Of a stretch of 64,000 nt of DNA, positions 58,889 through 59,804 are shown in pieces. The notes beneath the pieces were generated by a model. That model was not told the origin of the DNA and did no database searches. It was given only the letters and a program-made list of their open reading frames with translations. The stretch comes from Eubacteriales bacterium (GTDB lineage Bacteria; Bacillota; Clostridia; Oscillospirales; CAG-272), in the NCBI GenBank assembly GCA_045632065.1, contig JAZQWA010000045.1:794-64793 (forward strand), in the 5' to 3' direction. The translations under genes and the position numbers were made by a program. The stretch's first letter is position 1. Each line of letters opens with the position of its first letter.

Positions 58889-59625
58889 TCAAAATCTCCT
58901 TTCAAAAATTATGCTAATCAAGGAGATTTTATATCCCACCCCGTGCCTCGTCCTACTCGTCTCTTCGTTCCTCGTTCGGACCGCTGAACGCTCTCGGGAC
59001 CCGCCCCGATGCCGACAAAAAGTCGGCATCGCCCCGGCACGAAATTCACTCAACTCTCTCTTTTTAGAGTATCAGCGCCCCCTTTGTAGTCGCTGACACT
59101 CTCTTTTCGCTTCTTTCTTCGGTCGTTCTGCTTGCCTGCCGTCCGCTTGGCCGTCCGCTACGCTCAAACGGCCTAAAAAGCGGAAAAACGGCAGGCGTGC
59201 GCAGTCCGACTCTCAGTCAGTCGCTACAAGAGTGAGAGAAAGTTAGAAACGACAATAAGCTCGCTACGCTCGCCCGCTGAGGCGGAAGAGGGGCGCAGGC
59301 GGTTTCACCTGACCTACGCTCCACAACGGCAAGACCTGCGACCTTGCCTGTTCCGCTTCGCAGTATCCCCGCACTGCGCACTTGGAGATTGCGAGCCTTG
59401 CGAGGCTCGGTCTGCCGACGACCTCTTCGCCAGAGGGGCAGGTCCGCCAAGGTAAAGAAAAAGCACCTCACCCGAAAGTGAAGTGCTAATCTTCTGTTTG
59501 ACAAATCGCAGACCATATCCAATCAACAGAAATTGGTGGTGTTGGCAGGAGAAAAAGCGGTAGAGGGGAGTTATACCTCTGCCAAAACTCCTCGATTTGC
59601 TTATACAAGTTTTACCTCGTATGGA

Positions 59626-59667
59626 CCTATTGACATTATAACCCAAGGCACGTTATTTGTCAATAGG
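59626..59667 (-). promoter_or_regulatory. Palindromic control region: consensus sigma-70 promoter on the minus strand embedded in a 10-bp perfect inverted repeat (candidate operator or Rep nick-site hairpin)
   Basis: Minus strand: TTGACA (59663-59658), 17 bp spacer, TATAAT (59640-59635). Inverted repeat CCTATTGACA / TGTCAATAGG at 59626-59635 and 59658-59667. Confidence 0.5.
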
Positions 59668-59804
59668 CAAATCGAAAAAAGTTCCAACGAAGTATAGTTC
59701 CGCTCTCGAAAGACCGCCAAAACGTTCCTGCAGACTTGCCACCAATTACAAGGCCCTACGGGCTACAAAATATTGATTTTGTACGGCAAGCCGTACAAAA
59801 CCTG

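Follow-up and report, generated by a model that had tools for sequence, protein, structure and literature searches.

A probable structured 5' leader upstream of the initiator gene in a small integrative rolling-circle element of gut Clostridia

We analyzed a 64,000-nucleotide stretch of DNA from a gut Clostridia bacterium (hereafter the window), and propose that a block at 58889–59670, read on the minus strand, is probably a structured 5' leader, or attenuator, for the rep operon in a small integrative rolling-circle replicon, and that it limits Rep. Comparison with related elements establishes a non-coding region with covarying structure, a helix (P0) anchored at the predicted transcription start, and a promoter and terminator-like hairpin that recur throughout the family. 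The initial annotation had suggested a large non-coding RNA, a long 5' leader or a replication origin; a structured 5' leader agrees with the non-coding character of the region, the conserved promoter and the covarying structure in the Rep sense, whereas a single ornate RNA of ~700 nt does not hold, the block being modular instead, with a family-wide module of ~200 nt and an extension of ~50–600 nt.

The folded block takes up a quarter of a 3.4-kb element with the following features:

~56420–59830: integrated rolling-circle element, 3.4 kb, encoding an inovirus-type HUH Rep and a small Xer-like recombinase
59798–59830 and 56413–56445, no strand assigned: two copies of the att direct repeat (repeat family D3) flanking the element
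57127–57747, minus strand: tyrosine recombinase, 206 aa, consisting of an Xer-like catalytic domain only, without an N-terminal DNA-binding domain
57828–58667, minus strand: HUH rolling-circle Rep, family REP_ORF2-G2P, with the motifs HFH and YIFKY
58668–58684, minus strand: probable leading-strand origin, TTCTTATTACTTGATTT, directly 5' of the Rep ATG and outside the block
58691–58888, minus strand: leader ORF, 65 aa, with its ATG at 58888 and its stop 20 nt ahead of the Rep ATG

The closest annotated relatives of Rep are Inoviridae Rep proteins (30–37% identity), and the inoviruses that encode them carry a repressor and an RstB-like gene. Searches of Pfam, PHROGs and NCBIfam returned no family match for the 65-aa leader ORF, which is shrunk to a mini-ORF in four relatives, and nothing for two small ORFs of the element. 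The relatives are mostly circular contigs of 2.2–3.4 kb from gut Clostridia, the circular ones have a single att copy, and the element replicates as small circles. No DNA similarity was detected among 72,556 plasmids and 50,697 phages, and neither single-protein scans with Rep of genome and viral collections nor an alignment-based Rep scan of viral contigs gave matches; a motif scan of viral contigs with RGGTGAAACCGCCKSCGC gave 21 matches, which are otherwise dissimilar and were discarded as chance. We found nothing specific on this element family in the literature.

The promoter and the conserved module that follows it comprise:

59635–59663, minus strand: sigma-70 promoter, TTGACA-17-TATAAT, −35 at 59663–59658 and −10 at 59640–59635
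59440–59628, minus strand: P0-closed module, in which P0 and P0b enclose domain 1 and the terminator-like hairpin
59628–59623 with 59445–59440, minus strand: P0 helix, AGGTCC with GGACCT, its 5' strand 7 nt after the −10 and at the predicted transcription start
59617–59611 with 59456–59450, minus strand: P0b helix, AGGTAAA with TTTACCT
59450–59634, minus strand: domain 1, comprising hairpin P1, long-range helix P2, inner helices and a hairpin at 59536–59519
59622–59603, minus strand: P1 hairpin
59600–59593 with 59508–59501, minus strand: P2 long-range helix, GCAAATCG with CGATTTGT
59454–59487, minus strand: intrinsic-terminator-like hairpin (59487–59462) with a covarying stem and a U tract (59462–59454, TTTTTCTTT)
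59422–59436, minus strand: H1 hairpin, CCTCT-GGCGA-AGAGG, with the invariant loop GGCGA
59392–59409, minus strand: H2 hairpin, CGAGCC-TCGCAA-GGCTCG, the loop being CGCA in relatives

The minus-strand promoter singled out by the initial annotation matches the consensus at all 12 of 12 positions, and transcription is predicted to start ~7 nt after the −10. Relatives have a promoter of 10–12 of 12 at the same place, often with an extended TGTGn −10, and no other strong sense promoter lies within 1 kb of Rep. The promoter carries an inverted repeat in the clade of the window, formed by the −35 region (CTATTGACA) and the bases after the −10 (TGTCAATAG). Antisense promoters with at least 9 of 12 matches are absent from the leaders of the window's close relatives, and the leader of one element, L004, has two weak antisense matches of 9 of 12 and no more.

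GC content is 0.50–0.61 across 58850–59599 as compared with 0.32–0.43 in the flanks (300-nt windows), and 50–65% over the block as compared with ~40% in the flanks. The GC-rich, hairpin-dense character claimed at the outset was thus borne out, and all five hairpin sites read as originally described (59008–59030, 59066–59101, three stems in 59329–59409, 59462–59487 and 59559–59583). Folding of the whole block was compared with dinucleotide shuffles, giving z = −6.7 for the minus strand and −4.6 for the plus strand. The GC-rich part alone gave −4.7 (minus) and −5.3 (plus); it folds similarly well on both strands, and the z-score therefore expresses no strand preference there.

As judged by sequence comparison, the block is non-coding. 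Its ORFs overlap one another and no frame is kept in relatives, as the absence of a credible ORF in the initial annotation had implied; a six-frame tblastn search of the block against relatives returned only short matches in several frames, substitutions between relatives have no codon periodicity, indels are mostly not multiples of three, and the block ORFs have no matches in Pfam, PHROGs or NCBIfam. The structure does not correspond to known RNA families either. ROOL, GOLLD, raiA and ribozymes had been named as candidates, and no covariance model matched the block even at E ≤ 1: a scan of 56000–60200 at this threshold gave one chance sraA match outside the block, a scan of the whole window with Rfam 15, whose models also cover plasmid ctRNAs and riboswitches, at gathering scores gave three tRNAs and nothing else, and a scan of 19 related elements gave nothing relevant.

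The module of ~200 nt, which matches no Rfam family and is common to many related elements in our sequence comparisons, is ordered on the Rep-sense strand as follows: promoter, P0 5' strand, branched domain, terminator-like hairpin with U tract, P0 3' strand, H1 (loop GGCGA) and H2 (loop CGCA). It is followed in relatives by 50–600 nt of GC-rich hairpins, a sequestered Shine-Dalgarno sequence, an optional leader ORF and, at the start codon of Rep, a CTTGAT(A/T) nick-site motif. An nhmmer profile of domain 1 recovered its training sequences only, and a covariance model of this domain (R1) additionally reached only L004 (33 bits) and L122 (23.6 bits), so that the family-wide module was traced by anchors instead.

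In 21 of 24 elements P0 occupies the same position, its 5' strand 6–7 nt after the −10 and its partner strand immediately 5' of H1, and it does so with at least 15 different sequences. The helix formed with an element's own partner strand averages 5.96 bp, as compared with 4.35 bp for partners taken from other elements, and the observed mean was reached in none of 20,000 permutations. A minimum free energy fold computed from the window's own copy, with no relatives added, recovers the structure seen in the comparison, P0 and P0b included (z = −4.5). P1 and P0b are mutually exclusive, and P0b forms only once the terminator has been transcribed. Within domain 1, the loop UUCUGUU of the hairpin at 59536–59519 may pair with AACAGAA at 59498–59492 in a tentative pseudoknot. 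A GC hairpin with a U tract lies at the same position in every clade examined, and inspection by eye gave no convincing conserved competitor (antiterminator) of the terminator stem.

H1 and H2 each occur on ten different stems with the same loop, H1 always on the Rep-sense strand; GNRA-type loops (GAAA, GCAA) are also present. H1 lies 190–232 nt from the promoter and 48–764 nt from the Rep start, and since the former distance is nearly fixed and the latter varies, H1 tracks the promoter and not the double-strand origin (dso).

Downstream of H2 in the leader, the GC-rich extension and the final helix contain:

58930–59421, minus strand: GC-rich extension, domain 2
59379–59369 with 59302–59293, minus strand: long-range helix of domain 2, GCGCAGTGCGG with CCGCCTGCGC
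59271–59262 and 59165–59156, minus strand: two copies of the repeat GAGCGTAGCG
59194–59136, minus strand: covarying three-part hairpin with the loop UGAGCGUAGCGG
59102–59066 and 59030–59008, minus strand: further hairpins of domain 2
58889–58930, minus strand: helix sequestering the Shine-Dalgarno sequence, anti-SD ATCTCCTT at 58927–58920 with AAGGAGAT at 58901–58894, just 5' of the ATG of the 65-aa ORF

The Shine-Dalgarno-sequestering helix is seen in minimum free energy structures, and a hairpin at the same place covaries in relatives (helix 11). The length of the extension differs by clade, from ~50 to 600 nt, and a MAFFT alignment of the GC-rich part from 14 clades was set aside as too rough for a consensus fold. 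Some short-leader clades have GC-rich blocks upstream of the promoter, and the idea that these are displaced copies of domain 2, which would have favored a role at the DNA level, was dropped: nhmmer detected no homology, and the upstream block of L008 was judged from its sequence to be partly an expansion of an att-internal hairpin, the others being located by composition only.

Covariation in homologous elements, proposed earlier as a check on the stems, proved strong and on the Rep-sense strand. With 4–7 sequences per clade, and with structures derived from those same alignments, 94% of cells pair in domain 1 (RNAalifold, five sequences) and 11 pairs are changed on both sides, as compared with 4.8 ± 1.5 in shuffled alignments (reached in 0 of 500) and 0–3 in slid controls; 87% of cells pair in domain 2 (RNAalifold, six sequences), with 17 such pairs as compared with 8.8 ± 2.1 (0 of 500) and 3–12; and compensatory changes affect 18 of the 42 pairs predicted for the L088 clade. 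The comparative structures hold 73 G-U cells and 14 A-C cells, in line with the earlier remark that mismatches become G-U pairs in the minus-strand transcript, a count that leans to the minus strand because the structures were predicted on that strand. All 17 occurrences of the motif GAGCG[ACT]AGCG are on the sense strand, the antisense strand having none. Both strand signals are equally expected for displaced plus-strand DNA of the same sequence.

Based on these observations, we propose the following course of events. Transcription would start ~7 nt past the consensus −10, and the nascent RNA would fold into the branched domain. Some 170 nt downstream the polymerase would reach the terminator-like hairpin and U tract, where most transcripts probably end. 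In read-through RNA the first 6–25 nt would base-pair with the segment that directly follows the U tract (P0 and P0b), closing the ~190-nt module, with H1 and H2 forming next, and the final helix of the GC-rich leader would hide the Shine-Dalgarno sequence of the short leader ORF. Since no ribosome-binding site is obvious for Rep itself, whose start lies 20 nt past the stop of the leader ORF, Rep is probably translated by coupling to that ORF. The net effect would be to keep Rep synthesis, and hence copy number, low despite a maximal promoter. Two properties of the GC-rich part, its equally good folding in the antisense direction and its unconserved length, were counted against the leader reading, and neither an effector nor an alternative antiterminator pairing nor an antisense RNA was found as its regulatory partner.

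A second explanation, which is compatible with a leader and does not exclude it, is that the GC-rich part, possibly the whole block, acts as DNA on the displaced Rep-sense strand, as a single-strand origin (sso) and/or a packaging signal; we consider this unlikely, if worth keeping in view. Rep is of the inovirus type, the element replicates as small circles, and on the strand expected to be displaced the nick-site motif comes directly downstream of the block, which is the usual placement of sso elements relative to the dso (PMC10378824, PMC5703833). A fold computed with DNA parameters also scores better than shuffles, and a variable length is what an accessory element would be expected to have. 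The dso itself, which the initial annotation had offered as an option for the block, appears to lie outside it: pC194-type Rep proteins have CTTGATA as their conserved nick site (PMC10378824), and the motif CTTGAT(A/T) has its sole conserved copy at 58684–58668, adjoining the start codon of Rep, as CTTGATT in the window and as CTTGATA in many relatives. Most Rep clades listed have (T)TACTTGAT(A/T)T, followed by ATGGGACAGAAT where the motif abuts the start codon.

The resemblance to ssoA is partial. The loop UGAGCGUAGCGG of the hairpin at 59194–59136 overlaps the CS-6 consensus TAGCGA/T in element L001, but the loop motif is GAGCG-N-AGCG with a variable N (TAGCGA in L001; T, C or A among relatives), so that CS-6 is not conserved. 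RSB is absent, the ssoA sequence TTATGCCGAGAAAATTT having no match with up to three mismatches in the element; the palindrome at 59008–59030, considered as an RSB, resembles it on the wrong strand only and is not conserved. Known ssoA is ~160 nt long (PMC5703833), as compared with ~500 nt for the GC-rich part. A DNA structure also leaves unexplained why, in all clades, P0 begins where transcription is predicted to start. The module is moreover framed by a canonical promoter and by a terminator-like hairpin with its U tract, and H1 follows the promoter and not the dso.

Third, the module could encode a non-coding RNA acting in trans, either as a terminated product of ~170 nt or as the full RNA of ~740 nt, with possible roles in copy-number or immunity control or as a cofactor of either Rep or the recombinase, which is truncated at its N terminus; we regard this as improbable. 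A maximal promoter with a terminator behind it is how an sRNA gene is laid out, the invariant loops GGCGA, CGCA and GAGCG-N-AGCG, carried on covarying stems, point to specific recognition, the P0 3' strand in read-through transcripts is the complement of the free 5' end of a terminated RNA, and the recombinase has no N-terminal DNA-binding domain. Against this, Rep needs the same promoter, so that a leader role is required anyway, and the att core is conserved across clades and not reprogrammed. The conserved loops have, by eye, no complementarity to att or dso that holds across clades, and a guide-RNA function was rejected on this ground. As a long shot, the P0-closed module with its invariant loops might represent a new functional RNA class of satellite-like inovirus relatives, working with the element's proteins and not as a passive leader; its partners could be the truncated recombinase or Rep, with the RNA possibly serving as cofactor, scaffold or sensor of the excised circular state.

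Two further explanations fare worse. Transcription through a G-rich non-template strand could form an R-loop or G-quadruplex that exposes the nick site to Rep, with precedents in ColE1 RNA II and mitochondrial CSB II, and the sense strand does have a G/purine excess near the 3' end of the block (plus-strand GC skew −0.32 at 58850–59149), and G runs (GGGGCGGGGGGG) adjoin the dso in other clades; however, the window has no canonical four-tract G-quadruplex, an ORF of 200 nt separates the G-rich end from the nick site, and the covarying hairpins would be left unexplained, making this very improbable. That the block is an unusual Arg/Ser-rich protein gene or functionless filler is scarcely credible, given that its long stop-free frames on both strands are expected at 60% GC, that the unconserved frames, aperiodic substitutions, frame-shifting indels and lack of family matches argue against a gene, and that conserved motifs and covariation argue against filler.

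Initiator control in rolling-circle plasmids and filamentous phages is usually described in terms of antisense RNAs or repressors. The integrative replicons described here, which form a large uncultured family of 2–3.4 kb from gut Clostridia, have a conserved, covarying leader fold for which neither an antisense partner nor an Rfam match was found. If the leader reading is true, the fold would constitute a new class of cis-regulatory RNA and a compact natural system (promoter, 190-nt fold, terminator) for the effect of 5' end pairing across a terminator; if instead the DNA reading is true for the GC-rich part, this would be a new type of lagging-strand origin in inovirus-like elements of Gram-positive anaerobes. 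The combination of promoter, P0 at +1, U tract and GGCGA hairpin makes a practical marker for finding such small elements in metagenomes.

Several known systems share individual properties with the element. Like ROOL, GOLLD, raiA, OLE and HEARO, the block is a GC-rich, structured non-coding stretch in a mobile element of an AT-richer Firmicute, but it has no covariance-model match even at E ≤ 1 and only ~200 nt are conserved across clades. The block was also considered as a riboswitch, an aptamer-like fold with an expression platform: its branched fold is conserved and leads into the terminator-like hairpin, and neither a ligand nor a switching helix emerged. Taken as a whole, the element resembles RS1, the satellite of CTX phage, in that it is integrative, measures 2.7–3.4 kb, has a Rep of the inovirus type and lacks structural genes; RS1 uses the host XerCD, whereas the present element carries its own small tyrosine recombinase and resides in a gut Clostridia bacterium, and we know of no helper phage for it. 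The intergenic region of the Ff phages (f1/M13) is hairpin-rich and lies upstream of gene II, and the present block similarly is a hairpin-dense non-coding stretch of several hundred bases with a plus-strand fold, directly upstream of a G2P-type Rep gene; it departs from Ff in that it starts exactly at a consensus promoter, includes a terminator-like hairpin and leaves the nick-site motif beyond its limits, at the start codon of Rep, and packaging and minus-origin roles are only candidates. With ssoA the block shares an orientation-specific folded DNA upstream of the dso and one loop resembling CS-6 (TAGCGA/T), and differs in the absent RSB and in its loop motif GAGCG-N-AGCG with variable N.

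The control of rep leaders in small plasmids, as in pT181 repC attenuation, R1 tap-repA and ColIb-P9 repY-repZ coupling, comes closest to the reading we prefer. The present leader differs in that it is GC-rich and 3–4 times longer, with a 5' end whose pairing spans the terminator-like hairpin, the Rep belongs to another family, no sequence or Rfam relation exists, and the opposite strand has no countertranscript promoter of the pT181 type (at least 9 of 12 matches) in the leaders of close relatives. What is shared is a structured leader upstream of the initiator gene, a terminator-like hairpin ahead of rep, a short leader ORF stopping shortly 5' of a rep gene without its own ribosome-binding site, and, as the likely purpose, the limitation of Rep.

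A direct repeat of 26-33 bp (copies 56413-56445 and 59798-59830) flanks the 3.4-kb element, which has spoIIID on one side and an aspartate kinase gene on the other and carries the genes below.

Genes of the element
58888-58691, minus strand: 65-aa ORF
58667-57828, minus strand: HUH Rep, 279 aa, family REP_ORF2-G2P (Pfam E 8e-16)
minus strand: tyrosine recombinase, 206 aa, matching the catalytic half of Xer-type enzymes only
plus strand: conserved 116-aa ORF

A search for Rep homologues gave 329 relatives, and among the best 120 most are carried on contigs of 2.2-3.4 kb; in 20 of these small contigs the two ends overlap exactly, by the k-mer length of the assembler, and these contigs are therefore circles. 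The related MAG L004 holds a similar element at the same spoIIID/aspartate-kinase locus. The nearest annotated Rep relatives belong to faecal Inoviridae (30-37% identity), in one genome of which a repressor and an RstB-like gene adjoin Rep, and to 1.4-kb staphylococcal plasmids. The two-tyrosine motif of Rep, YIFKY, resembles that of phiX174 protein A, an enzyme with a pair of catalytic tyrosines (PMC5714925). Based on the genes, the circular contigs, the shared locus in L004 and the Rep relatives, we conclude that the element is a small rolling-circle replicon that integrates and also has an episomal state.

The att region (59732-59830, and 56413-56445) contains, within the element, an imperfect inverted repeat, CCAATTACAA ... 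TTGTATAATTGG, that encloses a pair of small hairpins (59777-59800 and GCCCGTAGGGC). Relatives keep this arrangement, and in some it is much enlarged (L008). CTX phage and integron attC use folded single-stranded att sites. Because a hairpin-bearing inverted repeat is found together with a recombinase that has an Xer/integron-integrase-like catalytic domain only, the att site may likewise be folded single-stranded DNA. The opposite end of the element has, upstream of the 116-aa ORF, a non-coding stretch of ~50% GC (56450-56780), partly kept in L001 and L119; the gene caller's version of the ORF in L001 runs across it (231 aa). Further along the window, ~400 nt of 51% GC come after a tRNA gene (61549-61636; 61549-62040 overall). 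A mechanical ORF in this stretch contains the peptide HPIGCLLLL...RAMHGIGFA three times, which implies DNA repeated in tandem with a unit of about 200 nt; the units may be remnants that resemble tRNA.

The features initially noted in the block between the promoter and the first gene (58889-59670) are confirmed. The consensus promoter on the minus strand matches at 12 of 12 positions (59663..59635), GC content is 0.50-0.61 against 0.32-0.43 in the flanks, and all five hairpins named are present as written. The block folds much more stably than its dinucleotide shuffles, with z-scores of -6.7 (minus strand) and -4.6 (plus strand). As had been claimed, it is non-coding, since no frame is kept in relatives, substitutions are spread evenly over the three codon positions (four pairs of relatives) and indels have lengths such as 1, 2, 4, 10 and 11.

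All close relatives have a stretch of 600-800 nt and 55-75% GC at the same place, and many distant ones reach 70-80%. By blastn, alignment is limited to patches. Aligning the six closest elements and then reading through 24 elements drawn from many Rep clades gave a common architecture.

Architecture of the leader, 5' to 3', all on the Rep-sense strand (minus strand of the window)
1: consensus promoter, its -10 often extended (TGTGn)
2: helix P0, 5' strand, from 6-7 nt past the -10, the predicted transcription start
3: branched domain (domain 1), ~150 nt
4: GC-rich hairpin, then U tract
5: P0, 3' strand
6: hairpin H1 with invariant loop GGCGA; in some clades a CCCC-loop-GGGG hairpin and G run instead
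7: hairpin H2 with loop CGCA, ~30 nt further on
8: GC-rich stretch, 50-600 nt
9: Shine-Dalgarno sequence and small or vestigial ORF
10: (T)TACTTGAT(A/T)T, in many elements fused to the Rep start codon

The substitute for H1, seen in L008, L012, L014, L015, L016, L022, L073, L009, L079 and L004, consists of GCTCCCC-loop-GGGG and a subsequent run, for example CGGGGGGG, often 30-60 nt or less from the nick-site motif; on the Rep-sense strand it might fold as a G-quadruplex or a slipping helix. In L004 an 82-nt leader piece (GGCGAGCGGTAC ... GATGAAACCGCCGCCC) occurs in two direct copies (4286-4366 and 6503-6585), of which the one outside the leader lies where the recombinase gene ends (3') and overlaps the end of the called gene; shorter repeats of the leader occur in L010 and L086.

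The stems covary in homologous elements. Counted in few sequences, on structures derived from the very alignments used for counting, domain 1 (5 sequences) pairs in 94% of cells, with 11 pairs changed on both sides compared with 4.8+-1.5 in column shuffles (0/500) and 0-3 with slid partners; the GC-rich part (6 sequences) pairs in 87% of cells, with 17 such pairs compared with 8.8+-2.1 (0/500) and 3-12. The long-range helix of domain 1, GCAAGNCG/CGNCTTGC (P2), shows three pair types at one position and is wholly rewritten in L004 as GCUCAGCG/CGCUGAGC; L004 is recovered at 33 bits by a covariance model from which it had been left out. In a second clade, 18 of 42 predicted pairs are compensatory. 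For P0, the best helix of bases 4-14 past the -10 sits directly 5' of H1 in 21 of 24 elements, in 15 or more sequence versions (AGGTCC/GGACCT in the window; AGCCTA/TAGGCT, CAGGGTC/GACCCTG, CAGAGGC/GCCTCTG and GTCCTA/TAGGAC elsewhere), and these pair better with their own partners than with those of other clades (mean 5.96 vs 4.35 bp; 0/20,000 permutations reached the observed mean). P0 is often extended by a second helix (P0b in the window) that takes in the U tract. When the window's 212 nt are folded by themselves, the minimum free energy (MFE) structure (z -4.5) contains P0, P0b, P2, the terminator-like hairpin and H1. For H1, and likewise for H2, ~10 different stems are seen, the loop unchanged and always on the sense strand; the decamer GAGCG[ACT]AGCG occurs 17 times on that strand of the leaders and 0 on the opposite one. 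G-U cells outnumber A-C cells 73 to 14 in the comparative structures, which were predicted on that strand, so that the count leans its way.

Strand bias does not separate RNA from single-stranded DNA, since the displaced plus strand has the sequence of the Rep-sense RNA. We favour RNA for the first 200 nt because: (i) the closing helix begins at the predicted +1 in every clade; (ii) the promoter and the terminator-like hairpin that frame the module are both canonical; (iii) the distance of H1 is constant to the promoter (190-232 nt) and not to the origin (48-764 nt to the Rep start); and (iv) apart from the main promoter no strong one was found within 1 kb of Rep, and no antisense promoter of 9/12 or better in the leaders of the window's close relatives (L004 has two weak 9/12 matches only), so that the block must be transcribed for Rep synthesis. 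A second minus-strand promoter (56472-56499; TTGACA, 16 nt, TGTGATACT), near the other element end, is directed outward across att, and L001, L002, L116 and L117 have promoter-like sites ~220 nt ahead of the main promoter. In the circular form it would read over attP into a terminator-like hairpin (59802-59775), and in the integrated form it would be directed at spoIIID, antisense, giving different transcripts in the excised and integrated states.

The case for RNA is weaker for the GC-rich remainder, where a lagging-strand origin (sso) is a live alternative, and one compatible with a leader. This part lies upstream of the putative double-strand origin (dso), the usual location of an sso (PMC10378824, PMC5703833), folds equally on both strands by z-score and is not conserved in length, and its three-part covarying hairpin at 59194-59136 shows UGAGCGUAGCGG, overlapping the CS-6 consensus; however, the T of TAGCG varies among relatives, and the RSB motif is absent from the element with up to 3 mismatches allowed. 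A dso within the block, also proposed initially, was not borne out, since a conserved nick-site-like motif, TTCTTATTACTTGATTT, lies immediately 5' of the Rep ATG (58684-58668), outside the block. Its core, TACTTGAT(A/T)T (with ATGGGACAGAAT where the core abuts the start codon), recurs in most Rep clades listed, and pC194-type initiators have CTTGATA as their conserved nick site (PMC10378824). In the window (58650-58690) and at many other loci the Rep start codon sits inside a DNA motif, TTACTTGATATATGGGACAGAATGTCATCAAG, that is more conserved than coding would require and in which CTTGAT is repeated in inverted form as ATCAAG; the motif probably represents the nick site with its hairpin.

For the RNA leader, we propose that the maximal promoter drives its synthesis and that most transcripts probably stop at the U tract. 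In read-through RNA, P0 and P0b would close, the GC-rich hairpins would be traversed, and the leader would end in an anti-SD/SD helix (58927-58920 with 58901-58894) found in MFE structures. No Shine-Dalgarno sequence was seen by eye before the Rep ATG, which lies 20 nt past the stop of the leader ORF. In L001, L002, L116 and L117 this ORF has shrunk to 8-17 codons, with its Shine-Dalgarno sequence and stop position kept, which points to translation of Rep by coupling to the leader ORF. The mini-ORF of L117 reads MEKTLGQM. The 65-aa protein thus seems dispensable, and translation up to its stop may not be. Termination, coupling and the SD helix would together keep Rep synthesis low; we infer termination, coupling and a regulatory purpose, most likely ordinary copy-number control.

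A scan for known large RNAs and ribozymes, as initially suggested, gave no family match to the block (element region at E<=1, window at gathering scores, 19 related elements), which belongs to no Rfam family. In position, its closest counterpart is the Ff intergenic region. In function, it is closest to the rep leaders of small plasmids, among which pT181 uses attenuation and R1 and ColIb-P9 leader-peptide coupling, but it differs from them in size and GC content, in that no antisense partner was found, and in that its 5' end pairs across the terminator-like hairpin. The block would be a variant of known rep-leader control on a little-described element family. Its covariation is unusually clear, and its motif, common across gut metagenomes, has no match in the libraries that were searched.
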